In this document: in pieces, positions 3,595-30,493 of the stretch | Layout of the letters: every line of letters starts with the position of its first letter | How positions within the stretch are numbered: the first letter of the stretch is position 1 | Translations under genes and position numbers: made by a program | Assembly: GCA_964187785.1 (NCBI GenBank) | Contig: OZ076409.1 | Coordinates: forward strand, 22,818,001 to 22,882,000 | DNA length: 64,000 nt | Direction of reading: 5' to 3' | Origin: Amphiscolops sp. MND2022 | Lineage: Eukaryota | Notes under the pieces: model-generated | Databases searched by the model: none | What the model was told of the DNA's origin: nothing | What the model saw: only the letters and a program-made list of their open reading frames with translations

Positions 3595-3607
3595 CTCCCC
3601 CCTCTTC
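3595..3607 (-). promoter_or_regulatory. Polypurine tract of element 1
   Basis: CTCCCCCCTCTTC on + is a purine run on -, abutting the 3' LTR. Confidence 0.85.
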
Positions 3608-3801
3608 GGGATTGTGGTACCATTCTTGAGTGTCTCAGGCGTTCTTGTTTTGGGCCTTCTGTTTGTTGGCTGTGTTTCGGATGAAGTGTATAACCTTCTT
3701 CTGGCTTTTTGGCTTCGGATCTAGAATAATTCAAAGGTTGTCAAAAGTATTCTATGCCACCCATTTTATTAACTCTTTTTGCGTTTTTGATTCTATTGGA
3801 T

Positions 3802-6800: not shown

Positions 6801-9075
6801 CAATCTTCTCATTTTGTCTGTTTTTTTGGATAGATTGTTCAAAAATTTTGATAAGTGTTGTATCGAGCCCAGAAATGATTTTAGTTCCTTGGTGTTTGTG
6901 GGTGCTTTCAATTTCGTTATCGCTTCTGTTTTATCTTTAATTGGTTTCACTCCGTTTTGGTTTATTTCGTATCCCAACCAGGTTAGTTCTTTTATAAACA
7001 GTTCTGTTTTTTTTCTCGCTCGCTCGGTAACCTTTTTCTTGTAGTTTCGACAGTATTTCGCGTAATTCTCCTTCGTGTTCTTCTATTGTTCCGTTGGTGA
7101 CACAAATGATGTCATCTAACCAGACTGGTGTTTTGAATTCTAGGACTTTATCAATATGTTCTTGAAACACGGTGGGAATATCCGATAGTCCGTAAAATCC
7201 CTTTTTAAATCGGTAAAGTCCGGTAAAATCACCGCCGATAATTGAAAACACGCAGTGTCGTGACGCTTCTGGAGATAGTTTTGCCTGTCCATATGCGTAG
7301 TCTAGGTCGATTTTGGAATCCATATCTCGCCGTTGTTTTTTGTGATTTTTGTGGATATTTTGCTGATTAGTTCTTCCATGTTTGGCATTGTTGCCTTTCT
7401 GTTTATGCAGGATTCGTTTAATTTCCTTGAGTCCAGTGCAATTTTTACTGATTCATCTTTTTTGATCGTTATGACCGCGGGTGAAACGAAACAATTTTCG
7501 GTCGTTTTTTCGGCTTTTTCCAAGTGCCCTTTATCAATTAATTTTTTAAACTCGTTTTTTACAATGTTCTGAAAGTGTATGGGTACCGGTCTCCCCTTTT
7601 GTTGAATGGGTTTTGTGTCTTTTTTCAACTGAATGTCTATTGTCAGGTCTTTTATTGTGTGGTTGTTTTTAAAAAGGTTTTCAAATTCTTTGAAAATTTT
7701 CTCACCTTTTTCACTTGCAGTTATGTTCCGGATAATGTTTGTTTCCAGATTTCCGTGTAATCCGATTTCCAACTTGTCTAGCCAGTCCATTCCCAGAAGG
7801 GGTTGTGTGTTTTTCTTTTCCGTAATTAGGATGGGTAGTACTGTTTTTGTTTTTGTCCGTTCTGACTTCTACCATCGCTTCCCCCTGGAATTTGATTGGA
7901 TTTTTGTTTACGTCAACGAAACATTTTGAAGTCGCTTTGATTTCTTTTGGATTGATAATTGGCGGGATTATCGTCACTGGAGAGCCTGTGTCAATAATGA
8001 ATTCTATTGGTTGTCCATGGACCAATAGAATTGTTTTGTAAAAATCCACTCGATTAATACCGTTGACGGACTGAATGTGATCAATTTCTGGCCATGGTTC
8101 GGTGTTGCTGCCCGACGATACTGCTTCGGTTATCCGCCTGACGGTCTTAGATTTGCAGACTTTGGCAAAGTGCCCCATCTTTTTGCAATTATTGCATTGT
8201 GATCTCCGTGCTGGGCAGACGTGTTCCATAGACCAGTTTGGTTTCCCGCAAAAGCGGCAATTTTTGTTTGAAGTTTTTCTTTTCTCGTTGAAGTGTGTTT
8301 TTCGCTTCCGTAATTGATTAGTATGGCCGATTTGTTCGGACGATGTTGAGCTGCTTGTGGAGTCTCTTTTGGCTTTTTTGATTTTGGGTTTTTTATCTCC
8401 GTATTTTCTGTTGTAGTTGTCTAGTTCTATGGTTTCCAATACCAATTGTATTTTCAGTGGGCCTTTTATGAAATTATCACGGGCTCTTTTGTCCTTTATG
8501 GTGGCTGCAAACTTGTATCTAATGATTTCTTCTGGTGTGACGTTGTTGAAGTCACATTTCCTTTCAATGTCCACCAGTCTTTTCCAATACTCATGCAAGG
8601 TTTCGTTTTCCTCCTGTTTCATATTGAAAAATTGTGCCCTGCTGTGGAATACATTTCTCGCTGGGAGGAAGGTTTTTTTGAATAATGTCAGCAGTTCTGG
8701 TAGTCTGACATCTTTTAGCTCTCGGCCCCATTGACCTCTCATAATTTCATGTTCGGCCTTTGGGCCCAGTGCCCAGATGACGTCGCCTTTTATGTGGTAC
8801 GCTGTATGTTGGTCCATGTTCAGTGGCCCCCTCTTCAGTGATCTCGTCTAGATTTCGGTCGTAAGTCAGATGGATATACTCCGATATTTGTTCCCACCAC
8901 ATCTTGGGATTAATCTTGGTGAGATCGGTATCTCTGTCTGATAAGATTGGGATTTTGTACTTACTTTTTTCGGCTTCTCGGACATTGTTTGGTTGTTTAT
9001 TGTTCTCGTTGACTGTTCCGATGTCATCGGCTCACCTTCCGTTGGGTTGGGGTCGGTGTTGTTGATTTCCAGCAT
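3802..9075 (-). pseudogene. Frameshifted gag-pol of element 1
   Basis: Gag with CRFCGKPNWSMEHVC and CNNCKKMGHFAKVC knuckles; protease FIIDTGS; RT WLDDII; RNase H TTDACNTG...NELE...TDHQAL; integrase HNGH...CPSC, LDFAGP, RTDNG, VERTI. Split over ORFs 8866-9081, 7711-8817, 7302-7790, 6937-7323, 6744-6977, 6415-6783 and 3802-6378. Confidence 0.93.
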
Positions 9076-9079
9076 GTTC

Positions 9080-9097
9080 AAATTGCTGACTGCGCCA
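9080..9097 (-). promoter_or_regulatory. Primer-binding site of element 1 (probably tRNA-Ser)
   Basis: TGGCGCAGTCAGCAATTT on - directly after the 5' LTR; complementary to a tRNA 3' end ...GACUGCGCCA. The tRNA identity is from memory. Confidence 0.75.
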
Positions 9098-9288
9098 TGT
9101 TATAGACTCGCAGAAAAGATAGAATTAAGAAGTTCAAATTAAGACGAGAGTGTTCTCATGAACTGAGAGTACAGAGTATCAGTATCTATACGTGTAGCAA
9201 CGTAGGCAACAACTAAATGATGGGGATGTTCTATATTACTTGAATGTTCAATTAAGTCTGTCTAGACTATGTAACTTTCACCTCTACA
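9098..9288 (-). repeat. 5' LTR of element 1 (191 bp, 14-bp deletion)
   Basis: Matches 3390-3594 but lacks AGTTCATAGGCAGG and has a few substitutions. Confidence 0.95.
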
Positions 9289-9316
9289 GTTCCCTCAAAC
9301 TCCTAAGTTGACAAAA

Positions 9317-9481
9317 ACGTAGCAACGTAGCAACGTAGCAATGTAGCAACGTAGGCAACAACTAAATGATGGGGATGTTCTATATAGTTCATAGGCAGGT
9401 ACTTGAATGTTCAATTAAGTCTGTCTAGACTATGTAACTTTCACCTCTACAGTTCCCTCAAACTCCTAAGTTGACAAAAAC
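9317..9481. repeat. Tandem duplication of the outer LTR half plus flank, headed by (ACGTAGCA)n
   Basis: Second copy of ...GTAGGCAACAAC...CTCTACA-GTTCC-CTCAAACTCCTAAGTTGACAAAAAC. Confidence 0.9.
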
Positions 9482-11169: not shown

Positions 11170-11964
11170 GTGTGTCTAAACGGCTAAATGGATATTGAAA
11201 AAATGCTTTGCTGGAAAATATTTCCAAAGCAGAAGTTTGAAGTTAATAACCCGGCCAAAGTACTGAGTCTTTTCAGTGACCTGTGTCGGCCAACTTTCGA
11301 AACACCTTTTCACGAAAGCAAATAGGTTTTTGATCAAATAACCAGTTCCAAACTGCGATGAACGGTGATTGTATTGATGTTTTTAAACACACAGCCTGAC
11401 GTGAAACAGCAATCAACATTTTCCACAGTTCTTTCAACTCAAGACTTCGTGATTATTTGTACTGAATAGCAAATAGTTGAGTGGCTTGTTATTTCATATC
11501 TGGAGCCGCCATAAGGCTCCACAGAATTCCAGAGGACTCCGTTTAGTTCCATGAAAGTATATGCATTGAAATTTGAATTGCCGTTCCATAAAATGAATCA
11601 CACTGAAGGCATGTGACAGATATGATTCGATGTAAGTATTTTAGCAGAAACTGGCTATCCATTTTGTACGGAATTGTCTGGACGCTTTTTTGAACCAGAG
11701 CCGGGTTAATTTTGACTAGAAGTCTAATGGTCTAATAGTTTTGTGCCTTGACATAGTGATGCCGGCAATTGTATCATAAAGTGCCCTTAGACACCAAGCA
11801 GCTGCTCGAATCGAGACGGCTGGAACTTTTCACAAGCTACAGACCTGTATGCAGAATAATTTTTTAAAAACCTAGAAAATTCATTGATGGCATCCTTCAA
11901 AAACATGCAAACAGTTCAAGCAATTTGAACCAGGGTGAACACATTAGTTGAGAAGATCAGCTAC

Positions 11965-12695
11965 TGTAACGATCACTTATCGAGTCCGAGAATTCGAAAT
12001 TGTTTTGAAAATTTCGTTCAAGGGACTAGATGCCCTCCCCTGAAAAGTCATATTCCGCTGAAGGATACCGTGTCTTTACCAAAGGACCTGTCCCCGAAAA
12101 TGAAAAGGATTTGAGCGAGAGAAGCAGAAGAGACCCACTACGAACTAGACGACTACAGGAATCCGCAAAACCTGTCAGAAAAAGACTCAAATTTCGGCCG
12201 ATACGGACTAAACTCTGTTCCCATCGGTGCTTTCTTTAGCAGATCATTACAATATGTTGTGACCACCAAAATGAGTCAACTAGCTTGAACAAGCATCCGT
12301 GCTTGTGTCCCAGGCTAATTGCTGCCCCAAAAGTGCTAATTATGCAGTAAATTGCGTATTTTGTCGTGGTAATAGCTCGTGAGCTACATATTTCGATTTC
12401 CTCTGTAGCTACAAGAGAACACGATTTTCTTTTTCCACCTCACCTGTTTTTAAAGGCTATCTAAGCGTTGGTTTCGAAGAAAAAGCGTAATTCGCGTTGC
12501 TGATAGCAATTACAGACTGGATCAGGCCGGCGAGCACTTCACAAGAAGCGGAATCCTCCTCTGACGGGACAGTTTTTACCCGAAGGAGGCAAAATGAGCT
12601 CATGGTCATGGGCGCCTGTCCCGGGCAAATACCCATATCATGTGTTCCTCTTACTCTCATGGTTACGGCGACAGTGGTGAGAGCCTGTCGTTACA
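11965..12695 (+). repeat. 5' LTR of element 2 (731 bp)
   Basis: Direct repeat of 27808-28539; about 7 substitutions and 1 indel counted by eye. Confidence 0.97.
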
Positions 12696-12711
12696 TAGAG
12701 ACATCATTTTT

Positions 12712-12728
12712 TGGCGACCACAGAGGGA
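12712..12728 (+). promoter_or_regulatory. Primer-binding site of element 2 (tRNA-Arg-like)
   Basis: TGGCGACCACAGAGGGA, 16 nt downstream of the LTR end; resembles the complement of a tRNA-Arg(TCG) 3' end. Confidence 0.8.
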
Positions 12729-15608
12729 TCGCTTCGAAGTGCTTCCCTTAACGGTTTTAAAAGAGCCGACCCTCTGGTGATTGACGCCAAGTACGACCCG
12801 ACTCTGACGAGGAGAAGACAGAAGCAGAGTTTTCTATGTTTTTACCCTGTATGTACATTGTTGAAGGCTTTATGCCTGGTGGTTAAAGGTAAATTTAGTG
12901 AAAAAGCGCTGTATGTTGTAATTCTGAAGCTTTTTAGTAGTTAACAGGTAACAGTCGAAATAACCAACCCTCTTAACAGGTCACTCTCTAAAATTGGTCT
13001 AGCAAGCCGTCAAAAGGCTGCTAGAGGTGTTAACAGGTATTTTCCAGCCTTTTTCAGCTTTTTATGACCAATGAAGCGAGTGTTGAGAAGAGGATGATCC
13101 TTGCTCAAAAGTATCTTACAACCTGCCGGAATGGAGTTGTACGACTCGCCTATCCCATTTCTCGTACAGGCTACCCAGAAAAACGAAATTTGGTGGCAAC
13201 GTACTACAAACACTGACCTATCTAGAGATGCAACCCGTTTGTCTCTAACTGTTCTGGGTGACGAGTAAGAGGAACGGAAAGATACAACTCGTCGATCCAG
13301 GTTGTATGAATACTTTGAGTCAGGTTGAAAATTTTTTTTTTGATTGCTCAAAATTTTATGTGTAATCACTTGCCGATGTTCTTACGAGCTTTCTGCAAAT
13401 AGGCGTGTGCATTTGCACCTGTTTTGTGCGAAAAAAGTGCGTTTTTTCATGTATTTTCGACGAAAAGTGCCTAATTTGGCCACTTTGAGGCGAAACATCT
13501 ACATGAGCGCGAGCGCTCTTGGTGCCAGCCACACATTTGCAGAAATTAAATAAAAGTAGCTCAGAACTCTAATGAGTTCACAAAAACCAGGGCCAACTGC
13601 TCAAAGTTGCCCAAAAAAGCACTTAGTGCGAATCTTGTGAGAGAAAACCCCGTTTCGGAAAAATTAAGCACTTCTAGTAGTGGGGAGATTGATGTTGGAA
13701 CTTCCAAACATCCCCAATGTGCCACAATTATGTCAGGGCACACCAGCCGGTACCTAGAGCTGCCTGTTTCGGTAATTATTGTCACCACCTGCCACAAAAA
13801 CCTACAGAAATTGCAATTTTGAAGTTTTCCAAAAGTGTTTTTGAATGGAACTTGAACCGATCATTGACTAACATTCCTATACCAAGAACATTCCGCGGAC
13901 TGTTGCTTCCAGTTTATTCGAAAAATTTAACGGTCAAGAGTGAAGACCGCACCCCAAAATTCTTTTTCAGTGTGAAGAAAAGTTGAAAAACGTTGATTTT
14001 TAGTTAGTTTCAGGAGTGTCCGCATATATAATTAAAACCCCCTGGACACTCTGTCTTTTTGTTAGCTAGGAGCTTCCCAGCTCTCATTTCCTGTTTTTAC
14101 ATAAAAAATAACGCATAGTGCTGAAAACCGCGTCAAAAAATTCCTTTTCAGTGCTGAGAAAAGTGGAAAAACGCACTGAATCTGACCAAATTTCCACAAA
14201 ACCGGACTGTCCAATTGTTAGGGTCGGGTCATAGATTCCCGAACCCTAGCTGAAAACTGGTTGCATTTTCGTAACCACCACAAAAAATAATACTAGTGCC
14301 AAAAATTTGGTGAGCCTAGCGCTAACCAAAGTTGAGAAAAGCTCTCTGACGTTTTGACATCAGAACGAGCTGACCTAGCCGAAAATTTCCAAAACTATAA
14401 GACCGACAGTGCCTCAAACCTAACAGGCGCGGCTAATTGAGGACTTGTGGCAGTGCTGTGACTAGTGGGGCAACACGTTGACCTCATCTTGCCTGCCGTA
14501 ACGTTTGTAGTGTCGACCCTCTTAGCCTATTTGTGAAAAAAGTGTCAAAAAAAGGACTGTTGCTGAAATAGTGTCTGAACTCAGTAGAAACCCTAGGAAA
14601 GCTCGCGAACTTTCATCGGACCATTGAACCAGCATTGTGGGCGCCCACTGACAGCGCCTACTAAGTTTCGAGCCAATCGGTGTTGTATTTCTTGAAAAAT
14701 TGACTGAAAAGTACTGCTCAAAAAGAGGTGCAAAAAGGCAAATTTTCCGAAATTTTTCAGAAATGCCTGAACACCTTATTGGAAAAGTGGGGATAAATTG
14801 CAGCCCACCATCGTGACTTGTGCTAGTTGTTGCATTGTTAGCGAGAATACCGAACCGCTAACTCATACTGGTGCCTAGAAATTGTATAATAAGCGTGCAT
14901 TTTGACTCCTACTGAGACATAGGTGTACCGCACGTCTATACCAAGGCAAAACAGTGCACAACCCTCGGAGCTCAAATCGGTGCTCAATTCCGTGTACCTA
15001 TATGTGTGTAAGATACTCTGGTCTATTTTGAGCCAGATCCGATTCTTCAGGAACGAATTTGAGCCACTTATATATTTTTGGTACTCTCCGAGAAAATTCA
15101 AGATTTGTTGTAAACGTCGCATAATTGTCTCAGCGAAAAGGTAGCACCAATCTGAGCTCATTTTCTGAGCTTGTGGTTTAGTAACAACTGCTTGAGTAAG
15201 TTTGAACTCGCTACGACCATTAGATGTGGTTTCGACCCATTCGAGACGTGCGTATCATCATTCTGGCTCAAGTCTCCACCGAGGCGAAACCCGGTCTTCC
15301 ATGTAAAAAATTTGCAAAAACTCCCTTGTCTAAACGCATGTTAGTGAGTCCATCACTTAATGTGAATCGTGATATTTTTTCAAGTACTTTATACAATCGA
15401 ACATCACGTACCAGACGATGAGTGAATTTTGAAAGACTCCAAAAATCTTTGAAACTATCAAAAGAACTTAAGTGTGTGTGACATAGTTGCCTCGTGAACC
15501 CTAAATGCACGGTTTTCGACCCCACGCAACGGTATCAACGCGCAGTAAACGTTTCACGCCGAAGCGACTCCCTCATCGAATTTCGACTATTCCGAAATAG
15601 GCTAAGTC

Positions 15609-18300
15609 ATGAAAAACAACAACTTCCGCAGTCTTTGGAATTCGATCACAAAGACATTAAGTCGTTCGAACACCCATCGGCACTCACATCTTTCAAAGAG
15701 GGGTAGGGAAGCTGCCTCACTACACGCCAAAACACCGAAAACACCGGAACCCGTGGCGTGCGAGACAAACCTCAGTGCAATATCAGACCTAACCTCAGAC
15801 CCCAGGGAGGAAGATTGGCCAACTGATGACAGTTTTATTATGGAACCCGATTTTTCAGACCCTATGTCAGACAACGCATCAGAAGAATACCAGACCAAAC
15901 AGGTCACCAGGACGGCAGACGATATCGGGGGATCAGCCGACGAAACAGGAAGTCAGGCGCACACGTCCAAATGGTTGCAAGAACTGACCAAAGTAGCTGT
16001 CACACCTTTCGGTACTGACGAAGCAGGAACATGGCCCAACTCCAACAGAACAAATGCTGGGGAAGAAGCTGAAATGAGTTGCTTGAATGCTACTGGACAA
16101 TTCAAGGCTCCCAGCATGGCAAGCGAGAGCACTGCGAACACGGCAGAGATATTGCAACAAATGTCTTATGTCGGGGGTATGAATTATGCCAGAGCGCGCT
16201 TGCAAGAAGCCACTGCACCCCGGCCATCGGGAAAAAGTAGACAAATACGGCCTCCAGCTCTACTAGCACAGACTGGCACTACAGGACCTCATGGCGACTC
16301 GCGCTCGTCCTCACCTTCATCAAAAGCTGTGTCTGGTCGATCTTCAGCATACCGAGCTGTACATGAAGCAGCAAAGGCGCGTAAAGCCCTGCTGGAAGCC
16401 CAAGCTGGTGTGAAGCAAGCTGCTTCTCAACTATCTGAGCGCAAGGCGAGGTGCGATAGAGAGCATCAGGCAATTGTGGAGGAGATTGAAGCTGTGCAAT
16501 CTGAGTTAAGGACTTCCACTGAGCGACAAATGCAAGGACAGGAAGTACAAGCTGCTCGCATGGATGCCATGGGTTAACGAATGGCTGAAATGAAGGATAT
16601 GATGGCCCAAAGAGAGGTACGTATGGAAGCCCAAATTCAGGAGGTGTGCTCGCAAGTACAGGCGATGGGCACTGCGCTAAAAAATGTCCCGCCTCAATCA
16701 ACTCTACCAAACAACACCATCAAAGAACTATTGCAGGAGACTGACATGTCCCTACCAAAGCCTGTGAAGAGTGTTTCACTCAAACCAAAAGAGAGTATAA
16801 TCACCACGACGAAACCCTCAGGTTCCAAACAACCTATGGCGAGATAGGCACCCCTACCTCAACCCCTTGTTTCGAGTGGAGAAGCTGTATCAACGTCCAC
16901 GAAGCTTATCCTTCCAGCACAAACGGAGTTTATCCCGCCAATAACAGAGTCTCACGAAAAGGAACCAACGTATGAAGCAATAACCCTTGAAACTTCGAGC
17001 ATGGGTATCACAGGTCTACGAGAACCCACGTGCATCAACGAATTGACCAACACCACGAGTACCTTCCAAACAGCAAACGCGACTTTGGGAGAGTCAAATG
17101 CAGAATTCCAAACTGCGGACACTGGATTGCCCCCGGGCAATCCGTGCGCAAGCAGCACCCGACGCAGAGAAGTGATCATCTCGGAGAACACCGATGATTC
17201 AATTAACTCTACACGAGGTAGCAGTGTTCCACCACCGGCAACAACTGAAGAAGCACCAATATCACCGGAACAACTCAGATTCACTGAAGCGATATCAAAG
17301 GCAATGTCCAAAGAACTGGCGCCATTAATTGCTAATCGTGATCAGACGAGAGTCCGTCCTACAGTGTATAAAGGTACAAAAGACAGAACCGTTGACGGGT
17401 GGCTTCCACTGATGAAACGCTTCCTGGAAAGGGTACATGCAAAATCATCAAACGTCGACAAGGCATGGGCAATAATTGATCACCTAGAAGGAGAAGCAAG
17501 AAACTACATTATCAATAAGTCAGAACCTGAACGAGATACACCAGACAAGGTGTTCGCCCTCCTAACCAGCAGATTCGGGACAGGTGGCAACCATATGCAC
17601 GTCCGGCAGACCTTTATGTCTCGCGTTCAACAGGAGAAGGAGGATTGGATGCAGTTTTTGGACGCATTAGAAGGCCTGCGCACCCAAGGTTTTCCAGATG
17701 AGCCTATCACTACCCGTCGTTACGAAATCCTGCAACGCTTCATAGATGGTGTGAACGTCCCTACACTGCGACGAGAATTGGCTGTGGTGTACGCGGCGGA
17801 GACGTATCTGACTGAACCGCCCACTGTGGAGTCCTTGAGATTCACCACGCGGCAATTGCAGCGACACCGTCCAACAACGTCAAAGCCCTATGATCCTAGA
17901 TATGCGATGAGATCAAGGCCTCACCCTTTTGTGCCAGGAAAAGTGGTTCATCCAGCACCAGGTCTGCCACAAAATGTGCTCCCTCCAAATCAAGGACAAC
18001 AACACGAGGCAAAGCCCCAAATGGCCCCACCAGCTCCAGCGTCGGTACAACAAGCTGCACCGCCCCAACAACCAGCGAGGATAGTTCCCCCAGGAGCATG
18101 CTTCAATTGTGGATTACCCGGTCACTTCGCGCGGGAATGCCCAAATAAGGATCAAGCAAGGAAACCCATTGCTCGCGCTGCGCCAAACGAACGAGTAAAT
18201 CTTTGCGAAAGTAATGTGGCCTCGGCATGTTCCGGTCCTATGTTCTGTGTCAATTGTGGTATGACTGAACACTCAGCATCACAATGCCAAAACGTTCCAA
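15609..18300 (+). pseudogene. gag region of element 2: long N-terminal extension, capsid-like core, two CCHC knuckles
   Basis: ORFs 15609-16577, 16581-16847 and 17001+ share one frame, separated by single stops at 16575 and 16845; PTVYKGT...VDGWL...HLEGEAR capsid-like motifs; CFNCGLPGHFAREC (18099-18140) and CVNCGMTEHSASQC (18246-18287). Confidence 0.88.
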
Positions 18301-18829
18301 TACATGAAGATTTGGCCTACAGCTTCTGGGCTGCACAGCCATCAACCCCTCAGACAGTGAGCGATAGTGAAATGGTTCTCACGTTACGCCCAGCTGAAGC
18401 CGTTCATGTGGCAACCTCTCTTACCGTTACGTGCGGTAAAATTCAAATCCAGACGAGTCCAGAGCCAACTACTTTCGACCCTTCTGGACGCACGATAATG
18501 TCCGCCAGATTGCTACTGGCTATTGAGAGGGAAACACGCCCAGAACTCACCATCGACGCTTTGATCGAAGAGATGACTACCAATGAAAATTATCAGCAAT
18601 TGACTCTACCACAGCCCGGAAAGTGGCAAGTCAAGGGAGTCACTTCAACCTATCATGCCTATTCTCCTGTTCCAGTTAAAGTTTGCATTGATGGCGTCGA
18701 CATGCGTTTTGGAGTGACTGTAATAACTGATGCGTTTCCTCCTGGAATTTGCTTGGGACCTCGAGAGCTACGCTGCTACAATATTGATGCTCAAGAACCA
18801 TCTGGTGAAACGAGAATCGATGAGCGTGC

Positions 18830-19160
18830 GTCGCTCGTAGTTTCATTCATGGTCCCTGATGATGTACCCATACCACTGCGCGGATTGATAGACACTGGAT
18901 CGGGGGTATCTATCCTCACGTTCTCGGCCTATAACCGTGTCGCCGTGCGCACTGGTACACTTCTGCGACCCTACAATATTGATTTGTACGCGGCGAATGG
19001 AAAGACGATCAAAACTTTTGGTCTAGCAGAGAAAGTCAAATTCCAGCTGGGAGGTTACGAGTTGGAAACTAACTTCGTAGTGGTTGACGATGCTATGGGA
19101 GTGGAAGACTTTCTTCTAGGCAGGAACTTCCTCCGAGCCTATCAGGTCTTGGTAGACCTC
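18830..19160 (+). CDS. Retropepsin-type aspartic protease domain
   Basis: GLIDTGSGVSIL (DTG at 18891) ... FLLGRNFL. Confidence 0.92.
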
Positions 19161-19898
19161 ACTGCGATGAAAGTCATTGTCCGAGCCCCCTCGGAACCAG
19201 TATGGTATCACGCCCATGCGCAGGTAAGTGATGAATCGCTTAGCTCGTCGGTAGCTACGGCAGAGGACATAGTTTTGCAACCCTTTGAACGCGCCATACT
19301 GCGCGCTAAGTTACTTGCAAGTGATCTAGAACCTTTCATATTCCGTGCTGTCTTAATCAATTTTCAAACACCTAATCGAATGTTGAAAAACGCCATATTT
19401 TTAGAAGACACTGTGGCAACCGTGGGAGAAACAGGCTTCCTTTACATCAGTTTAGGAAACCTTACTAGCAACGTCCACTGGCAGCGGGTCAAAAAGGGAA
19501 CCCTCTTGGGAACCGCAATACCCGTGACCATGGTCCATAGAGCCATCCCCCAAGTTGTCCCCGGACAAGCAACTGAAACTCAGCAGTCAAATGCAAGTTA
19601 TGTTTGTAAAGTATATGAACAGATGAATCTTGATTCTTCATCTGAATATAGCTCTTCATCTGAATTTGAGTTTTTGTCTTCTACTGATCCCTCGGAGCTA
19701 AGTTTGTCAGAACGCGAAATAAAAAAACGCACCGATCCGGCACTAATGGCCCCAATACCGGGCCCGGAAGCGCAACTCGACGAAGTACGCAATTTATGGG
19801 GTCCGGCCGCCAGCGACACGCTCGATAAACTTTTAAAAGAGTTTGACGATTTGTTCATGAAGTACAAGGCTGACATTGGTAAGTGTAAAATTGCTAAG

Positions 19899-21190
19899 CA
19901 CCCGGTGGAAGTAGAGGCAGGGGCTATACCCCACCGCGAAGGTGCACGACGAATGTCGCCTGACAAAGCAGAACGGGCCAATCAAGAAGTTCGTGATTTG
20001 CTAGCTTTGGGAATGATACAACCTTCTCTATCCCCTTGGGCGAGTGGTATTGTCATGGTCAAAAAGAAGAGTGGTGAATTACGATTCTGTTGTGACTTTC
20101 GACCACTCAATGAAGTGACTATCAAGGATGCATATCCTCTACCACGAACTGACGAGAGTCTATCTCGATTAGGGAAGGCAAAGATCTATACCAGCATCGA
20201 CTTAGCATGGGCATTCTGGCAAATTCCTGTCCGAAAGGCTGATCGTCAAAAGACTGCCTTTGCTTGTGAACTTGGATTATTCGAATGGCGGCGCATGCCC
20301 TTTGGGATGTGCAATGCATCAGCGACATTTCAGCGGGCAATAGCGCGAGCGCAACAAAGAATAGTCAATCGTGAAGGAAGTATGGTGATGGCCTATATCG
20401 ACGACATCGTGATAGCTACTGAAACCATCGAAGACCACATGGATAGGCTTCGCGAAGTATTCCAGTGTCTACGCGAGGCCGGTTTCAAGATGAGAGTATC
20501 CAAATGTGATTTCATGAAGTCAGAAATCAAATACTTGGGTCGAGTAGTATCTGCAGATGGTATCCAACTAGATCCTAAGGCTGTCACGAAATTGAGAGAT
20601 TGGGATATTCCGCGCACCAAAACCAAACTACAGAGCTTTCTGGGTTTTGGCAACTACTACCGCGATTTTATCCCCTGGCATGCTAAATTGGTTGCCCCTC
20701 TGCACGCGATGACGGGTACAGGCTCTTTCTTTTTGTGGGGGGAGGAGCAGCAACGAGCCTTCAACGGCATCAAAGTGGCACTAATGGAAGCCACAGCTTT
20801 GGCACAACCCGACACCGAAGGCGAATTCGTGCTAGACACAGATGCCAGCGGCGTAGCAATATCAGGTATTCTTCACCAATGGCAGGGACCACCCGAAAAC
20901 CGCAAATTACGACCAATTGTGTTGGGAAGCAAAAAGTTGACTTCTACACAAGCCAAGTATGGAGCACCGAAACTGGAAATGTACGCTGCATACTACTTCA
21001 TCTTGAAGAACCACAGCTATCTCTGTCCCCGAAAATTTACATTGAGAGTCGATAATCAAGCCCTCTCATGGCTGAAGACATATTCGATGGATCAGGCGAT
21101 TATTGGTCGATGGATAGTGGCTCTAGAAAAAAATCATTTCAGCATTGAGCATCGACCCCGAACACAACATCGAAATGCCGATGGCCTTAG
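19899..21190 (+). CDS. Reverse transcriptase and RNase H domains (Ty3/Gypsy)
   Basis: LRFCCDFRPLN, MPFGMCNA, YIDD (20394-20405), YLG; FVLDTDASG, KLEM, RVDNQAL, NADGL. Confidence 0.97.
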
Positions 21191-21899
21191 GAAACGAACC
21201 AACGACTATAAAAAGCATGAGAAACAGCTACAAAATCTACCAGCAATTGCTAACAAATGGAACTTCCTATCGCAAGAAGAATATGACAGACTCCCGCTAG
21301 CCCCATGGTTTGATGTTCAAGGACGCAAGATACCGAATCACCCCGACCTGCCTACGCACTTGCAGAGATTGGCCACCCAACACTCACCTCAAACCACAAC
21401 GATCGCTCCCACACGGAGAAGCGGACAAAGTAGACAAAGTGCGATCATGCGCGACAAAGCGATGAAAGCGCCTATGCCTACACTGCCCAAACCCGAATTG
21501 GAGATGCCTGCAGATTTCTATCCCGAATATCCCGAGGATTGGCTAGAATTAACCGAAGAATATCAACGGGACTACTTGCTTCCCACACATGCTGCCAATG
21601 TCCCATCAAGAACGACCTACCGTTGACTGGGGAGGAAAAGCAAGCGACTGATACCGCGCCCGAAAACGTGAAGCAGATGGCACTAGTAGTTGAAAGTGTA
21701 TCGATGGAATTACATGAACACGCAAATACAGTTCATGGATTGAAGGATCTCCTTTTGGCACAGAACCGCGATGTCCACATCTTGGCCATCAAGAAATTGG
21801 TAATGAAAGAATCAATAGATGACGACATATTTCCCGAGAACGTGCGCACATTCGCCAAAAATTATTACAAACAGAAGAAGAACCTCCTGCTGATTAACG

Positions 21900-23020
21900 C
21901 CAACGGCGTGTTGTGTGTGAGATATCCCAAGAATCAGAGAGCACTGCATGAACGCCCATATATGATTGTGATGCCCCAATTATACCAGCATGAGATCTTG
22001 TTCAAGGCCCACGACGCGATGGGACATCAGGGTATCGCAAAGGTGCTGGCAAGGATACAAGAACGCCACACCTGGCCAGGAATACGCCGCACCATTGGGC
22101 AATACGTTAGCCAATGCATAACCTGTCAACAGGTACGCGATAAGCCTGGTGATGTACGATTTCACTTGAAGAACATTCAGAGTGGCTACTTCAATGAGTT
22201 GGTTCAATATGATCACTTGAAAATTTGTCCCTCAGATGATGGCAACACTGGAATCCTGGTCATCATTGATCACTTTTCCAAACTCGCGGAAGCAGTACCA
22301 TGCAACCACGACGAGTACGATGCAGCAACCACCTCGAAGATATTGCTGCAAAAATGGTTTGCCCGACATGGTACACCAACAAGGATGCAATCAGACAACG
22401 CTCCAAACTTTACCGCGGCAGTATCTATTGAGTTCATGAGAGCAGCACAGGTGACTAAGGTTACCTCAACCGCTGGTCACCCTAAAACTCAAGGACTGGT
22501 GGAACGACAAAATAGAACATTGCTTACCCTGTTGCGTGTGTTTTGCTCCCGACGAATGCGAGACTGGGACCAATACTTAGATGAAGTGATGGGTGCGTAT
22601 AATTCTACACGTCATGCAACGACTGGGTTTTCCCCGTATATGTTGACGAGAGGCATGGAAAAAGCAATACCCCTGACCTTCCTGTACCCAGAATTCGCCA
22701 CTCAGTCATTCGAATCGCACGAGGCATATGCGGAACATGTCTTGGCCTGACAGCAAGAGATCCATGACTTAGTTCGTCGGAATACACATCAAGCCCAACA
22801 ACGACAGAAATTGAAATACGACCGAGCTATTCGTGCTAAAGCTTATGAAGTGGGCGAACCTGTTTGGGTCTTCTGCCGATACATTCCTCAAAAGGGATCT
22901 CCCAAACTGATGAGAGCTTGGCGCGGTCCTCACAAAGTAGCACGAGTGTTACAGGAAGGACGCGTCTACATACTCGACACTGGTCAAAAGTTACATTTTG
23001 AACGACTAAAACCGCATCAC
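21900..23020 (+). pseudogene. Integrase (HHCC, DDE, GPY/F) with an in-frame stop at 22748
   Basis: HDAMGH...CITC; YDH, IIDHFSK, SDN, GLVERQNRT; WRGPHKV...HFERLKP. Confidence 0.95.
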
Positions 23021-24329
23021 GGTGGTCCAACAGAGTGGGCCGCAATCCCTGCGCACAACGGTGAAGTCGCTATCATTATGGATCCAGACCCAGAGCAGTC
23101 TCATGAAGATATTCGAGATGATGCATCACAACCTTCCTATCGTGCGGAAGAACCACTGTCGGAAGCCAGCAACGTCTCCTTGCCTTCCCGACAAAGACAT
23201 TGGATGGATACTCGACTGCGTACTCGTACACGCGCTGGTGGCAGTCGACTACATTACCAACAGTTCGATCATTCCGAAACGGAATCTGAAGACGAACGCT
23301 CTGATGTACTTCTATCAAGCGCTCAGGTGAATCCCGACGAGAGTGTGATTCTGTCGTCACTTGTGGATGAACCCGTGCCTATCCTTGAAATGCCGATCTC
23401 GCCATTACCTGCTAAGGAGGCTCTGTTCTCAGAGAATGAAGCAATACCTGACGTCATTGAGAACACCGAGAGTCCTCCTACTCAGGCATCTGCCCCTACT
23501 CAGATACCTACCAAGAATTCTAGCATTTCTTTAGCCGGTACGTCTGCTCCACTGTTAACGAACCCATCTCTCACGGATATGCTGAGTAATTTCCCCATTT
23601 GGCCATTGATTGACGATAGTGTTCCGAATTCACCCTTAGAGAATGATGGTAACGAATCGCTAATATCCGATGGTCAAGAAGAGTTAACTCCCCCCATAGT
23701 TATTCCAACCAACAACACAACCATAGCAGTAAAGCTTCCTGGTGTTCCCAGAGGACATCAACACAGCAGACCACGAAGACATCCGCCCGGCAGAGCAAGG
23801 CTGCGAGCCTCGCTGCCGCGTGGCCATCAACAAACAGGCGCTGTTAGGGGAGCTCGCAAGAGAGGACGCCCCAGAGGCAGACCACCTCAAGCAACACGTA
23901 CTGAACCCAATGCCTCCACCCGTGTTCATCATACCCCATCTGTGGATACTGATTCTTCTGCTCCTAGTGCAGCAGTCACCTCAGATCAAGCGCAAACGCA
24001 GGAGTTGCCTAATACTGGCTATGGCCTACGACGTAATCGTGCCCCCAGATACCGCTGTGGAACATGTGGCCTACGAGATTGTAAATGCAATAATCTGGTC
24101 CACGCGGACTTCCCAATTAGACCCCGGGGAGTCTTACTGACACGTGAGAAGGAGACGCCACTCCCAAACGGCACAGTCGACCGTTTGACCATTCGAGCCG
24201 AGAAGACGTACACTGGGCTACAACGCAGTGATAACCCGTATCCTATAGACTTTATCCTATCCAAGATGAAAGGCTCGACGGTAGCGAAGGCCCCATGTCC
24301 GAGATTCAAGGAATGGACTTATGATCTTC

Positions 24330-25409
24330 GCGGTCTTGAGTTCACACTGCCTGTTACTGTTCCTCCATTACCCGCTAATATTGCTTTCGGTCCCTTTAAC
24401 TATGAACGAGAACCCATTCAGATGGTACGTTGCATTCCAGCTGACCTCTTGTATGATAGGTATAATGTCGTTGCAACGCCAGGGGATGTGTATCAACCAA
24501 CAACTCATTGGTGGCTATTGGTCACCGCCCCTCGCGCTTCTGATTTGGTTGACCCTTTAACCCTGCACACTTGTCTCGAGAGTTTACGAACCATGGCCTC
24601 TCCTAACAAAATAACATGTTTCCACGTCATCGACTTGTATCGCGGCAAAGTCAAGTTTGAGTGGTGGTTGGAACTTATCATCGCGATCTTATCGAGTTTC
24701 CCTCGAATCCGCTTTCTCGACAGTGGACACATTCTTTTCCACGACCCACTTCACTCCAATCTGCCTTGCACGCGCTGGATACATGGTCCAGGGCAAACAT
24801 CGATAATCAATCCTTGCCTCGCTCGGTGTGGCAAGACTTGGGAACGATTAAGGGCTGTCTACCGGCTTCCTACGATGATGGCCTCTCCAATGATCCTGGA
24901 CGAGAACTGGTATATCATGGAATCGTGCGACCTCAACTGGTCGACTACACACAGTATGCCAGCACGGATTTCCTACAAGCTTCCCATCATGTTGTTTTGT
25001 GTGCCCCGCGAATCTGGAGACTAATTCTGCCGCCCTTCGCTACGTAATGCGTGAGCATGGAGCCGACACCATATTTCGACTCCGATCGGAAGTTGGAAAT
25101 GTATTGACGCTCCCTGTGTCTATGAAGAACGACAAACCCCAAACTATACATTTATTGATTACGCGCGCCACGCCCCGTTGCCCCATGATAGCTGATACTC
25201 TTTTCGTATGTCTGGAATATTTGAAAACGTTACTCGAACGCCTAGAAGCCACCGAGGTTCATTTTGCTATCATCGATCCCGAGCGCCCGATACGTAATCT
25301 CTTTGATTTTTATACCTGCTTAATGGACGCGTTCGCTGATACACCTTTGTCTGTGGTATTACATGATCGCATTTACGTTTCCATCGCGAGCATCGCTAGC
25401 TTTCCGTGA
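24330..25409 (+). pseudogene. Two tandem TARG1/OARD1 (Poa1p)-like macrodomains at the Pol C-terminus, with 2 frameshifts
   Basis: By-eye alignment to TARG1 (GDLF..HCIS..FG..GEV..YLITK..L..SL..F..I.V); frameshifts at ~24720 and ~25007 join ORFs 22811-25024, 24661-25047 and 24999-25409. Confidence 0.7.
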
Positions 25410-25558
25410 TTTTTTTTGTTGTTTTCTCGTATTCTTAGTTAGTTAAGCTTAATGAGTTGACGAAGTATGAGTGTATTTCTTGTTTTACCTTACTTATCCT
25501 TATGTCATTAGTTCCGCTACCTGGTTACCTGTCTTTGGTACTGCCCCAATGTGATTTT

Positions 25559-26903
25559 ATGTATTGCACTGCAAATGATCAACACGCAGTCAACTTGCGC
25601 TCTTTCAGAGACTTGGTGATGAATCACGGAGACAAAGCTGATGAAGGAAGTACCCCCACGATGTTCCAATGAATCACCTGCAATGGGACAGCGCATATAT
25701 GACACTGCGCGTGTTCAGCGAACATCTCAGGTCGCTTTCATTCGCGACCGCCTTGACCAAGGTCTCTCATCCGCTACTGTGGCTGGAGTGGCAGCGATAA
25801 TTGCACAGACGGAGTCCCAGACCCAAGCTCCAATGCTGACCATCTCAATCACGTCTGGTTTTCCTGGGTTTCAGCGGTCCATGACCTTCCATGAAGGAGT
25901 GTGGTTTGGTCATGATTTGACTCATCACTTCACTGACGATCGTGCTGCGATTTCCTATAGTTTACCCAGTGGCGGCGTCCACCAGACCCATTCTTTGCAG
26001 ATTCCATCTTGCCCTCCTCCACCACCACCGGTACCTGCATCTCAATCAGCCGCGGGTGCCGGAGAGCCCCCGGGCTCTCAGGCGCGCCCGCCTGCACCAG
26101 CGCCTCCTGATATGACGAATAGACCGTTGGCTGAACAGGCAGTTATCTCAGCCTTGCAAGCTGTCGCCATTGACCCACATTATTCTGACTTTATGACGTC
26201 CATGGAGCGATGCTGGCCGGAGTTACGCCAAATAACCCTTCCCACAGTCACAATTCAGAACACGAGTGCCCTCACTGCGCCATCCGCACTGACTGTTCCA
26301 CATGTGAACCCGCTGTCTGAACAACCGGGACATTCCCGCACAGTCACTATGGAACGCAGTCGCTCATCCTCACGCTCCTCATCTTCTCACAAGGGGGGAG
26401 GAGAGCGTCGTCCTGCTTCCCGAAAAAGGAATGATCGTTCACCGACAAGGGCAAGCACAAGTGCAATACCGCCAATGGCTGTTCGCGACAGCCCGTCGAG
26501 TAAACCACCACCGGATAAGAGAGTCTCCAACGAAAAAACCACGCCAGCATCCATAGAAGTACCCATGACTGTCAACGCATCTGATCACACAAAAACAATG
26601 GTGTCGGAAGCACCCGTGCTTCCTTCGCCGCCACCGAGCCAGTCCACTGAAGGACAAGGAATAATGCAACCACTGCCACCCTCACAACCGACATCGCGTG
26701 AATCGCTAGCACAAAGGGCGATTCCCAAACCATCGTCGTCAAAGCAGCAGCAAAGCAAACCCACAATCGGCTACCAAGGGACACCCCAGGCGCAGAGAAC
26801 CGTAGAGGATCATTGTCCGAGATGGAAGAGAAGAAGAGCACTTCGCCCAGGGCGCGCCACTCCTCCGCCACACAATGAAGCGAAGTCCAAACATCACCGT
26901 TAA
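25559..26903 (+). CDS. Additional ORF of element 2 in the env position; unknown function, Pro/Ser-rich C-terminal part
   Basis: 420-aa open frame 25641-26903; probably starts at MYCTANDQ (25559) via a 1-nt frameshift near 25635; no signal peptide or TM segment apparent. Confidence 0.7.
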
Positions 26904-27798
26904 ATTAAGAATTGCTGTTATGCTTTAAATGTCGCTACTAAGCTCTTTTATCGAAGCTTTGTTGTCAGATGTCGTTGATACGCTTCAACACTGTAACGAA
27001 CTTTGCAGTTGTATACGAAAACATCAATTAATCACGGTGCAGAAACCAAGATGCGAGGTTGAAGCCCGCGGGCTTCTTCCTCCTCATCTGTATCAATTCG
27101 GTGCAATAATTTTCGTTGTAGTTAGTGTTACTAGCTTGAGGGTATATAGTACACATCCCAAGCATATTCATCAGGTGCTATTACACCCATTTTAGTTACT
27201 AGTTTTGATATTGATTTTTAATAACGTCTGGAAAGACGGAAAAAGAAGAGAAGAGAACAAAGGAAAAGAAAGAAAACAAAGCTTTTGAGCATTAACCTGT
27301 TGTTTTCCTTGAGTTACATAGAAGGACTGAGATTGAGTCTCACAAAATATTTTTTAAAATAAAAATTGACTATATCTGTTAAATTGATGGGAGCTGCTAA
27401 AAAAGATAATTTTACCAAGCGCCAAGCAGCGCGAAGCTCCCGAGCTTCGGAAAAGAAATTTAACTTGTCATGTGAAGGTCGTTGACCTTAAAACAGATTT
27501 TGACACGGACGGCCGAACTTTGAGAGGCCGAAAAGAAGTTTTAAAAGCCCGAGTAGCTCGCGACGGGATATAAAAAAAAAATTGCCGTGTTAAATTTGTA
27601 TACGAAGCTGTAAGTAGTTTTGATCAAAATGCAGCAATGCTGGGTCAAAAACGCTTCCAATGGTCAACCGGACGACGCGACGACGAAACAGTCTATGCAA
27701 TGCAGCTTGCGACGGCAGATGAGCTCCTAGAGATGATACCTGGCAAGGAACTCGATGACGCCTACCCTCACTTGACGGGGACGTCAAGCATAGACCCC

Positions 27799-27807
27799 GG
27801 GGAGTGA
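27799..27807 (+). promoter_or_regulatory. Polypurine tract of element 2
   Basis: GGGGAGTGA immediately before the 3' LTR. Confidence 0.7.
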
Positions 27808-28539
27808 TGTAACGATCACTTATCGAGTCCGAGAATTCGAAATTTTTTTGGAAATTTCGTTCAAGGGACTAGATGCCCTCCCCTGAAAAGTCATATTCCG
27901 CTGAAGGATACCGTGTCTTTACCAAAGGAGCTGTCCCCGAAATTGAAAAGGATTTGAGCGAGAGAAGCAGAAGAGACCCACTACGAACTAGACGACTACA
28001 GGAATCCGCAAAACCTGTCAGAAAAAGACTCAAATTTCGGCCGATACGGACTAAACTCTGTTCCCATCGGTGCTTTCTTTAGCAGATCATTACAATATGT
28101 TGTGACCACCAAAATGAGTCAACTAGCTTGAACAAGCATCCGTGCTTGTGTCCCAGGCTAATTGCTGCCCCAAAAGGTGCTAATTATGCAGTAAATTGCG
28201 TATTTTGTCGTGGTAATAGCTCGTGAGCTACTTATTTCGATTTCCTCTGTAGCTACAAGAGAACACGATTTTCCTTTTCCACCTCACCTGTTTTTAAAGG
28301 CTATCTAAGCGTTGGTTTCGAAGAAAAAGCGTAATTCGCGTTGCTGATAGCAATTACAGACTGGATCAGACCGGCGAGCACTTCACAAGAAGCGGAATCC
28401 TCCTCTGACGGGACAGTTTTTACCCGAAGGAGGCAAAATGAGCTCATGGTCATGGGCGCCTGTCCCGGGCAAATACCCATATCATGTGTTCCTCTTACTC
28501 TCATGGTTACGGCGACAGTGGTGAGAGCCTGTCGTTACA
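27808..28539 (+). repeat. 3' LTR of element 2 (732 bp)
   Basis: Direct repeat of 11965-12695. Confidence 0.97.
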
Positions 28540-30493
28540 TACTGCTGAATCAACTCGAAGCAAATGGGAGATTTGAGTTCAATCGTTTGCAAACTTTTCC
28601 TGGATGACTGTTAGTTCCAGATATTGCTGAATGTTACACATGCAGAATTTATCCCGTTTTTCATTGCAGCAATGATTTTACCATAATGTTATCCAAATGG
28701 TTGGATAGCAAAACTATTTTTTGAAAGTTGTATGAATGTCGTGTTAGTTCTAATGGAGGGAGTGCTCTATCAACTCAAACTTACCATACTCTCCTCATTC
28801 TCATCTGCCCACTTTTTGAACACAGTGGGTACCTTATATAGTAGAATTGTTAGCATGTTGGGCTTGGAAACAGGAGTTCGCGGGTTCGGATCCCGCACTA
28901 ATTCCACAATTTTTTTTTTAAAATTGCAGAAGTAGACGAGACCAAAGGTCAAAGCACTTTCGGCACTGTGCCAATTTCGCCAGAAGGACCCTGTTTTGAT
29001 TTTTTGATGTTTTCAATAAGAAAATAGCATTTTTTGTGCCTCAAGCACTCGCTGTGCGAACGACTTTTTTTTCATTTTTTTTACTGCTTTGGGACATTCA
29101 AAGCATTTTTCGAGCCTCAGTGGCTTTTTCTGGGATAAGTTCCGCACAATGATTTTTATATTTAAAAAACTTTTGTAGAAACCACCTCCAACATATTTAA
29201 AATGTGTGTCATATTTGGTTTAAGTCTCTGTATAGGGAATAGGAATGGGTGATACGATTTTGCATTCCTTTGACACGTAGCAGGTTTTTTTTGGAAAAAT
29301 GTGGGAAGTAATTATAGCAGCTCTGCTACTTATGGCATGATATTACTTTTAATGCCACTAGATAAACATCTCTAATTTCAGTAAACTTCGCTATTTGTTC
29401 ACCTTAAGCTATGGCTTTAAATAATTTACAGGCTCAGAGAAAAACTTAGTTTTCTCTCAATCGCAATCAATATGAGTATATGAACAATTGTCTTGGAAGT
29501 GGGAGGTCTCCCTCTTCAAAAGGCACGGCGAAAAAATTGTGCATGCGAGAAAAAGCAAATTTTATGAAGCGACCAATCTAAAATCGTTTTGAGTTTGCGT
29601 CAAAACTGTTCTAGACAATTGAGATCTCTGGTTCCAACTTTTTTTGACATTCGCGCTACGAATTTGACATGTGAAGACCAGATAATAAGTATGGATTTAT
29701 GGATCGGTAACTTTCACTGAGACAGGAAGGCTTTTATTTGGCGGAGAAATGCAAAAAATTGATGTAGGTGCCAAATTTGGCAACTGAATCGCGGTTGAAT
29801 CTAAAAGTAACTAATAATTGTATTCCACCTTCAAGGTGATGACTAGGAACCGGATAATAGTTGATTTTTTGGGGGCAAAATAGTTGATAAAATAGTTGGT
29901 AAAAAAGGCGAAATAAATGAAAAAAAGATGAATTTTTCATGTCTTAGAGACAAAAGTTATGTTTTCCTTTGTAAGTCGCTGGCGCCTATCACATAAAATG
30001 GTGTTATAAACGCTGAAGTTGCGACAATGGGGGCAAACTTGGTGCACACCCTTTCTGTCAAAGAGCATTGTGAAAACCTGTTTTCACAATCATCTTGCAA
30101 AATTTCGCCACTTGACAATGAACGTAAAGCATCCTTTAAATTTTGTATCCTCTGTTTGAATCAAAAATCAGGCCTAGAGGAAGGTCCTTGATTCACTTCT
30201 CAATCCCCAGACAATGTTACGAATTCACAAATTAAACACTTTCTCAAAAAATGCAAAAATTCTATGGTTGCCTTCCTTTTGCTGGTATAACTCTGACATT
30301 TCAGATATCCTTTTGCACATTTATATGACTCCAATACAACGTATTCGATTGACTATTTTGTGGCTTCAAAAAAAGTTGGTAAAGGACATTCGCTTGAATT
30401 ATTCGGTGGTTTTGGTTGAAGCAGTTACCGAACGTAACGCAAACAAAAATATCGTTTGACAATGCTGCCTCACAAGCAAAAGCGCACAGCAGG

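Follow-up and report, generated by a model that had tools for sequence, protein, structure and literature searches.

A Ty3/Gypsy retrotransposon in the 64,000-nucleotide stretch of DNA analysed here (the window) ends its Pol region in two tandem domains. Both are predicted to have the macro fold of human TARG1, both are held by purifying selection, and in both the residues that correspond to the catalytic pair and the diphosphate loop of TARG1 have been replaced. The pair may serve as a binding module of the polyprotein.

The element, its open copies and the extent of the family

The window contains one LTR element at positions 11965-28539 (Table 1). The Pfam domains of the element occur in the order gag zinc knuckle, protease, RT, RNase H and integrase and it has paired LTRs, 98.9% identical over 734 nt; it was therefore classified as a Ty3/Gypsy LTR retrotransposon. 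The copy is damaged. Stops end its ORFs at 16577, 16847 and 22750, and comparison with an uninterrupted natural copy located frame breaks near 21619, 24721 and 25001, of which the second falls in the segment between the two tail domains and the third lies inside domain 2. Both tail units are present in the window, as the first-pass annotation had said, although they are spread over three overlapping frames (22751-25024, 24661-25047 and 24894-25409). That annotation had joined them by repairing two 1-nt frameshifts. The first, which it placed at about 24720, was found near 24721, but the second, which it assigned to a CCCC run, is near 25001, a few bases upstream of the run, and for this reason the junction residue it proposed differs from that of the open copies.

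The genome (G000, 1.07 Gb) was searched for other copies. When the DNA at 24300-25450 was used as the query, the best 40 of 953 candidates were all 98-100% identical, and when the protein sequence of domain 2 was used, the best 150 of 3488 candidates consisted of the window's subfamily and one about 83% identical to it; these candidate numbers are not copy counts. Twenty of the 40 best-scored DNA matches were examined and both tail domains were found in one open frame in 16 of the 20. A natural frame of 3124 aa runs from gag to the end of the tail in one copy (L020), and a natural frame of 2101 aa joins the tail to the integrase in another (L018). The check on other genomic copies that had been proposed thus came out in favour of contiguity with Pol. 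The window element is a broken copy of a multicopy Gypsy family that is large and recently active. Downstream analyses were carried out on natural open copies; the last 450 residues of L018 (P0001) served as the reference tail, in which domain 1 is residues 102-222 and domain 2 is residues 291-439.

Among the 120 tail homologues listed of 165 matches, identity ranged from 98% down to 37%, and 405 representatives passed an E value of 0.001 in the tail-homologue search. The tandem arrangement probably exists in genomes besides this one, since the most distant tandem sequence (P0150) was only 35% identical to its best match here among the best 121 of 3469 candidates.

Table 1. Features of the Gypsy element, in window coordinates.
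Feature	Positions	Strand	Basis
5' LTR (TG...CA)	11965..12695	+	98.9% identical to 3' LTR over 734 nt; ends read
Gag, protease, RT and RNase H part of the single gag-pol frame	15606..21626	+	Pfam zf-CCHC, gag-asp_proteas, RVT_1, RT_RNaseH
Integrase (H2C2 zinc finger and rve core)	21434..22750	+	Pfam Integrase_H2C2 E 4.6e-17, rve E 1.8e-8
Integrase C-terminal region, then Pro/Ser/Thr/acidic low-complexity linker	22751..23854	+	Sister-subfamily comparison
AT-hook-like motif (R-G-R-P type)	23855..23887	+	Loose [RK]x0-2GRP pattern, 39/40 long homologues
Cys4 motif C-x2-C-x3-4-C-x-C, possible zinc site	24056..24088	+	Kept in 37/40 long homologues
N-terminal beta/alpha extension, predicted to fold with domain 1	24179..24361	+	215-residue model including the extension: pLDDT 84, pTM 0.80
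Predicted macro-fold domain 1, strongly degenerate	24362..24724	+	Fold matches, alignment, residue census
Conserved strand, helix and linker between domains 1 and 2	24725..24927	+	Homologue alignment; dN/dS 0.08
Predicted macro-fold domain 2, TARG1-like	24928..25373	+	Profile and fold matches, residue census
Conserved C-terminal strand-like tail and stop codon	25374..25409	+	Near-invariant alignment columns; low pLDDT
5' remnant of second large ORF	25623..26810	+	10/10 other copies diverge from the window at 26810
3' LTR with purine-rich tract before it	27808..28539	+	LTR comparison

Behind pol, the other copies have a large second ORF, represented by open pieces of 833 and 300 aa (L077:2-2500 and L068:2-901) and probably more than 1100 aa in all. 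Past 26810 these copies continue in long open frames of different sequence, and the window copy is without most of this ORF. Pfam and the PDB gave no match to it, and an SGNH-like appearance was not confirmed by Pfam, the PDB or pairwise comparison. In one RT relative (P0407), which may be a rearranged copy, a partial integrase is followed by a GDSL/SGNH-like match (E 8.8e-7).

Several further features of the window were recorded. About 2.9 kb without a long sense ORF (12696-15605) separates the 5' LTR from gag, and a TGG-starting sequence resembling a primer-binding site lies about 16 nt past the end of the 5' LTR. The element is flanked by a direct repeat of only 3 bases (11960-11964 vs. 28540-28544), with no clear target-site duplication of 4-5 bases, and the 3' ends of 10 other copies lie further out. 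Elsewhere there is a perfect 167-nt inverted repeat without a spacer at 1747-2080, possibly an assembly artefact or a fold-back element; a repeat-bounded element of about 6 kb at 3390-9481, whose + strand is strongly skewed towards T and which is probably an LTR element of the minus strand; and long inverted repeats with 173-174-nt subrepeats at 41503-42332 and 62196-63209, about 20 kb apart, which are probably transposon ends.

Predicted fold of the two domains

The tail was modelled with AlphaFold2 from 28 homologues (pLDDT 69.8, pTM 0.50). In the full-tail model the interdomain linker, residues 246-293, has pLDDT below 50 and the relative placement of the domains is of low confidence; domain 1 was also folded separately together with its N-terminal extension (Table 1). 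The best Foldseek match of domain 2 was human TARG1, with an E value of 1.2e-8 and a TM-score to the target of 0.78-0.83. In VIA the same pair gave Z 17.3 and rmsd 3.1 with 142 residues aligned over residues 291-438, and the next matches were DarG and Poa1p. TARG1 was also the best Foldseek match of domain 1 alone (E 9e-5, TM 0.60), and in VIA TARG1, DarG and 2AFC tied at Z 11.0-11.2 (TARG1: Z 11.1, rmsd 3.0, 115 aligned). The profiles of the two domains aligned with each other in hhalign with a probability of 86% (E 5e-6, 73 columns), and homologue profiles ranked human TARG1 first of 177,635 PDB sequences, weakly, with E values of 0.25 and 0.013.

As judged from these models both units have a TARG1/ALC1-like macro fold, in line with the first-pass annotation, which had described two tandem TARG1/OARD1-like macrodomains and had called the preceding copy the more diverged. 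Structure comparison and the weak profile matches thus agree with that description, but Pfam Macro does not recognise the domains: PF01661 gave no match to the tail at E values up to 10 and none in the 28 alignment members at E up to 1. Pfam scans of the window pieces left the tail without any match, and a single-sequence phmmer search of the PDB returned nothing relevant for it. In the ESM Atlas no score reached 0.9; Macro clusters ranked 15th and 5th, and these are leads only. In a viral fold library, macrodomain-bearing RNA-virus and phage proteins were matched at 6-16% identity and no close viral donor of the tail domains was found.

Domain 1 is the more altered of the two. The first phosphate loop and its helix are missing, the adenine Asp is lost, and the second loop reads D-x-Y-R-G. 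The domain is predicted to fold with the N-terminal extension and with a C-terminal strand and helix. No fold match to the extension was reported in the VIA comparison of the domain-1 model, and hhalign found no similarity of the extension to domain 1 or to domain 2.

Active-site residues

According to passages of the papers cited, Lys84 of TARG1 is catalytic and the K84A protein is catalytically dead (PMC8501950), Lys84 pairs with residue 125 (PMC7050489, where it is written Glu125), and the substitutions G43E, I44E and G123E abolish catalysis as well as the binding of ADP-ribose, although the G123E and G43E proteins still bind RNA (PMC5928194). Residue 125 is Asp in the aligned TARG1 PDB chain, on which a single offset of six fits K84, G43, I44 and G123. 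The register was carried to the tail through an intact element-borne domain (P0270), and the alignment was free of gaps across the second loop. Residues were then counted in 71 domain-2 rows, dereplicated at 90% from 154 with short rows dropped, and in 96 domain-1 rows from 204.

The position of K84 in domain 2 is Arg in 66/71 rows and Lys in 1/71, and the position of D125 is Pro, Ser or Gly and never Asp (0/52). The G121 position is Asp in 52/56, the G123 position is Glu in 44/55 and Gly in only 2/55, and the G43 position is Ala in 60/64. In domain 1 the corresponding residues are Ala or Ser at K84 (89/96), Gly at D125 (80/87) and Tyr or Phe at G123 (78/87), with Asp again at G121, and Pro (48/71) at the position of the adenine Asp. 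The Lys is kept at the K84 position in a distant domain 2 (P0161) and in the domain of a sister lineage (P0430). The first-pass reading of the LITK lysine as R or A holds, R belonging to domain 2 and A to domain 1, and so does the loss of the canonical catalytic pair, neither Lys84 nor its acidic partner being present in either domain. The same annotation considered the GCGLD loop to be absent. Its residues are indeed gone, but the loop has been replaced in register rather than deleted, by D-P-E-R-P in domain 2 and D-L-Y-R-G in domain 1.

The Asp after strand 1, which we take to be adenine-binding, is kept in 54/59 domain-2 rows, aligned through intact element domains with G-D-L-F at this point, so that half of the domain-2 pocket appears to be conserved. 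Small residues at the positions of G43, I44 and G123, by which a reader would be recognised, were not found as a set, and domain 1 is without the G43 loop. Both domains are mostly acidic; the net charge of domain 2 runs from -10 to +2 and is zero or negative in 36/41 rows, vs. 0 to +14 for 16 intact element-borne TARG1-like domains, of which 13 are at +7 or more.

Because the Lys/Asp pair is gone and the diphosphate loop is acidic or bulky, neither domain would be expected to bind or hydrolyse ADP-ribose in the manner of TARG1. In the alignment the diphosphate loop appears to bear, naturally, the substitution that kills binding in TARG1, and its acidic or bulky residues would occlude the pocket. 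Loss of the Lys and Asp is nevertheless compatible with hydrolysis as such, because SCO6735 is an active ALC1-like hydrolase without the pair; DarG keeps only the Lys, and the TARG1/ALC1-like class includes readers (passages of PMC7050489).

Selective constraint

The L020 and L053 subfamilies were compared. Domain 2 gave a dN of 0.092 and a dS of about 2.0, which is near saturation, for a ratio of about 0.05. In domain 1, where dS is saturated, pN was 0.097 vs. a pS of 0.81. The linker is 72% identical in amino acid sequence with dN/dS of about 0.10, the ratios in RT, RNase H and protease are 0.01-0.03, and the integrase C-terminal region is 99% identical in amino acid sequence in the sister-subfamily comparison. 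Both tail domains are therefore under purifying selection, which is the outcome of the dN/dS check proposed in the first-pass annotation. The tandem is kept across families that are only 35-40% identical, and an ending similar to the short C-terminal tail is found in the single-domain sister lineage.

Related elements and the origin of the tandem

When the genome was searched with Pfam Macro, further Gypsy families came to light in which a single TARG1-like domain is present; one of these domains matches TARG1 at E 1.3e-27. A search with this intact domain gave 1444 candidates, of which the best 150 were scored, and 19 loci (the L037-L056 set) were chosen from these for long frames and diversity. 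The macrodomain is at the end of Pol, after the integrase and a linker, in 15 of the loci, between RNase H and integrase in one, and after the protease region or before RT in three. The equivalents of K84, G123 and D125 are kept in 16 and lost in three. Retention of the catalytic Lys, the loop Gly and the Asp in so many loci suggests that active ADP-ribose erasers may be encoded by retrotransposons of this genome. Some of the intact domains pass the Pfam Macro cut-off, only just. The suspicion that single macrodomains occur in other retroelements was thus well founded, many being present in this genome; the RTs of the 19 loci are 24-34% identical to that of the window element.

Examples of single-macrodomain loci are G000:C12:44814600-44824500, C9:45001600-45011500 and C10:23506400-23516300. 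Degeneration of the element macrodomain, apparently independent and with different replacement loops, was seen in L038, L039 and L052 and in P0452, P0459, P0470 and P0473. One locus has a weak dUTPase match between protease and RT (L037:1839-7613, E 0.003, below the cut-off). The host macrodomain genes observed were two MacroD-like exons and a macroH2A-like locus (L031, L032, L033); from the macroH2A-like gene the genome appears to be that of an animal.

Relatives were also collected by RT. Among the 120 listed, most of which end before the tail, both domains are present in seven (RT 72-95% identical), a single domain with a D-P-N-R-G loop in three (56-57%; P0430 has the N-terminal part only), a single intact TARG1-like domain in five (46-52%), and an otherwise degenerate single domain in four, two of them recognised by eye only. 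A midpoint-rooted RT-RNase H tree of 16 chosen rows places the tandem lineage (100/99) as sister to the lineage that has a single rebuilt-loop domain (91/94), with the intact-domain lineages outside; the bootstrap support of this key branch does not reach 95%. A quick 35-row RT tree agrees, with long-branch warnings. In a tree of the macrodomains themselves, the intact domains and two degenerate ones form a group (99/97) that excludes domain 1, domain 2 and the sister domain. Scores with a domain-1 profile were 21-25 bits for the single domain of the sister lineage, against -1 to 8 bits for intact domains and no more than 6.5 for shuffled sequences.

The simplest reading of these comparisons is a series in which an intact eraser at the end of Pol had its loop rebuilt and was then duplicated. 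The loop change probably preceded the duplication, since the nearest single-domain lineage already has a D-x-x-R loop. This sister lineage was not found in the present genome at E 1e-40 among the best 150 of 3107 candidates. Descent of the tail from the intact C-terminal lineages of the same genome (L037-type) was considered and rejected; their RT is only about 24% identical and lies far away in the quick RT tree, which carries long-branch warnings.

Proposed function and alternatives

Domain 1 starts about 570 residues after the integrase core, past a long low-complexity linker. The first-pass annotation placed the domains where a chromodomain lies in chromoviruses, which is correct in that they are C-terminal to the integrase but only loosely so at this distance from the core. 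No Chromo match was obtained in Pfam scans of the integrase-tail region or of the whole 3124-aa frame; the folded part of the tail is the predicted macro fold, and the element is in this respect not a chromovirus. Two motifs precede the domains. The AT-hook-like motif, of the R-G-R-P type, was found in 39/40 long homologues with a loose pattern, on rows that were not dereplicated and with no chance control, and Pfam AT_hook matched weakly (E 0.2 in 2/28 members). The Cys4 motif, present in 37/40 of the same kind of row, also not dereplicated, has pLDDT below 50 in the model and may bind metal.

In passages of a single paper, AT-hooks are described as binding the DNA minor groove and as present in the HIV tethering factor LEDGF (PMC5053271), and chromovirus integrases as having a C-terminal chromodomain that steers integration (Gao et al. 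2008 as cited in PMC5053271). With these precedents, the AT-hook-like and Cys4 motifs favour a tail that tethers the integrase or binds a cofactor. We give about an even chance to the proposal that the tail is a duplicated pseudo-macrodomain interaction module, perhaps for integrase tethering. Such a module would form the C-terminus of the single Gag-Pol polyprotein; the conserved Arg at the K84 position and the Asp-x-Glu-Arg at the old pocket, together with the C-terminal strand, would make up a protein-binding surface. The weakest step is the last, in which the two motifs, the flexible linker and the module would, in the manner of chromovirus chromodomains, hold the integrase complex on DNA, chromatin or a host cofactor. 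The fold probably serves a new kind of binding and not the reading of ADP-ribose. No insertion bias was seen in flank GC; next to nine insertions it was 0.31-0.37, and elsewhere in the window it is 0.32-0.42, so that the flanks are not lower in GC. A broader proposal, which we put forward tentatively as possible but rather improbable, is an arms race over ADP-ribosylation in which the module of this clade acts either as a new kind of integration-targeting reader, which would recognise a host cofactor, a mark on chromatin or a DNA end that is adenylated or ADP-ribosylated, or as a mimic that blocks a host ADP-ribosylation factor.

The possibility was considered that the domains are non-catalytic readers of ADP-ribose or PAR and either direct integration into PARylated chromatin or serve as decoys against a PARP-type defence, as the first-pass annotation supposed. 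The TARG1/ALC1-like fold, whose class includes readers (passages of PMC7050489), the adenine-site Asp of domain 2, the basic Arg at the K84 position, the tandem macrodomains of PARP9/14 among the fold matches, which bind ADP-ribose, and the intact domains of related elements, by which ADP-ribose would matter to the clade, are all consistent with this. However, Glu or Tyr at G123, Asp at G121 and Ala at G43 occur nearly throughout, the net charge is negative, G123E kills binding in TARG1 (passages of PMC5928194), and domain 1 has neither the adenine Asp nor any of the first phosphate loop and its helix. We consider reading of ADP-ribose unlikely, and the targeting and decoy ideas, which rested on it, are left without support. 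Domain 2 could instead still be an enzyme whose chemistry or substrate has changed, the substrate being for instance another adenylated or ADP-ribosylated nucleic-acid end. It would then use the newly conserved Arg, Asp, Glu and Cys/Ser residues, and domain 1 would be a structural partner. Near-invariant residues do cluster at the old active-site positions, SCO6735 and DarG depart from the Lys/Asp pair, and P0161 and P0430 retain the Lys, but the glycine-rich phosphate loops are gone and the conserved pocket residues suit a binding site equally well, and an altered enzyme seems to us distinctly doubtful.

The tail might also act away from integration, as an accessory protein released by the protease or as a particle component that binds RNA or a host defence or translation protein, in the manner of the coronavirus SUD macrodomains. 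It follows a long flexible linker in a polyprotein that includes a protease, macro folds that do not serve ADP-ribose (SARS SUD-Paip1, aminopeptidase N-domains) are among the fold matches, and TARG1 G123E still binds RNA (passages of PMC5928194). Adjacency to the integrase is not required either, the macrodomains of other lineages being found before RT or between RNase H and integrase. Against this, the acidic net charge does not favour RNA binding and the AT-hook-like and Cys4 motifs directly upstream point to DNA or chromatin; such a role is quite unlikely, if somewhat less so than an altered enzyme. Finally, the loss of catalytic and binding residues and the recurrence of degeneration in several lineages could be explained if the domains were functionless relics carried by active elements. 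This is already largely refuted by the dN/dS of domain 2 at near-saturated dS, and the near-invariant new motifs and the retention of the tandem across distant families and in other genomes also speak against it, making it very improbable.

Comparison with known systems

The interaction module favoured here is of interest because a role is known for few of the accessory domains found on retrotransposon integrases, with the chromodomain as the classic case. The clade described here, which is recently active and present in many copies, has retained two macro folds that escape Pfam. Its relatives provide a natural series from an intact TARG1-like enzyme through a rebuilt single domain to the tandem, in which the conversion of an ADP-ribose enzyme into a pseudoenzyme of new function could be followed. 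The many intact TARG1-like domains in unrelated Gypsy lineages of this genome suggest that animal retrotransposons are under real pressure from ADP-ribosylation of their DNA, RNA or protein. A macrodomain of Poa1p-like type is listed in the automated annotation of some animal Gypsy polyproteins. A full-text literature search limited to main texts and mostly to open-access journals returned no paper on Gypsy macrodomains or on the tandem degenerate form, of which repeat-library or domain-database annotations could hold unpublished mentions; macrodomains go unmentioned in the main text of an opinion article on the accessory domains of retrotransposons (PMC6338049). Single retroelement-borne macrodomains are known and the tandem degenerate form appears to be new.

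TARG1/OARD1/C6orf130 (4J5Q, 4J5R, 2L8R) is the closest known protein, as the best Foldseek match of both domains and the best profile match of domain 2, with which it shares a minimal macro fold and the adenine-site Asp. The tail differs from it in identity (about 14-15%), in the loss of the Lys84/Asp125 pair, in the replacement of the Gly121/Gly123 loop by D-x-E/Y-R, and in being acidic, tandem and fused to a retrotransposon polyprotein; domain 1 is in addition without loop 1 and its helix and has extra N- and C-terminal elements. DarG (5M3E, 5M3I), Poa1p (6LFQ), SCO6735 (5E3B) and the Bacteroides BT proteins 2AFC and 2FG1 are of the same ALC1-like/Poa1p-like subclass, with VIA Z scores, where listed, of 13.5-15.8 for domain 2 and 10.1-11.2 for domain 1. 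The first three are stand-alone or antitoxin enzymes, and 2AFC and 2FG1 are of unknown function by title; none of all these proteins is tandem or element-borne.

The single TARG1-like Gypsy domains (L037-L056; P0445, P0449, P0463, P0469) are likewise retroelement-borne, and 15/19 end Pol, but they occur in one copy, 16/19 keep Lys84, Gly123 and Asp125, they are mostly basic, and some pass Pfam Macro. Fish epsilon-like ERVs, which occasionally encode macrodomain proteins (a passage of PMC4977317, citing Basta 2009), are another retroelement-borne case, with a single copy unlike the tandem. The chromodomain of chromoviruses is also an accessory, reader-type domain C-terminal to a Gypsy integrase, although its fold is unrelated, the tail domains lie about 570 residues from the integrase core, and targeting is only proposed here. 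Tandem macro folds within a polyprotein are found in the coronavirus SUD (6YXJ, 8UFM) and in PARP14/PARP9, which match with lower Z scores (7.0-11.8) and are of separate origin. The PARP macrodomains bind ADP-ribose, whereas SUD to our knowledge does not, and SUD is thus a case of macro folds repurposed from ADP-ribose.
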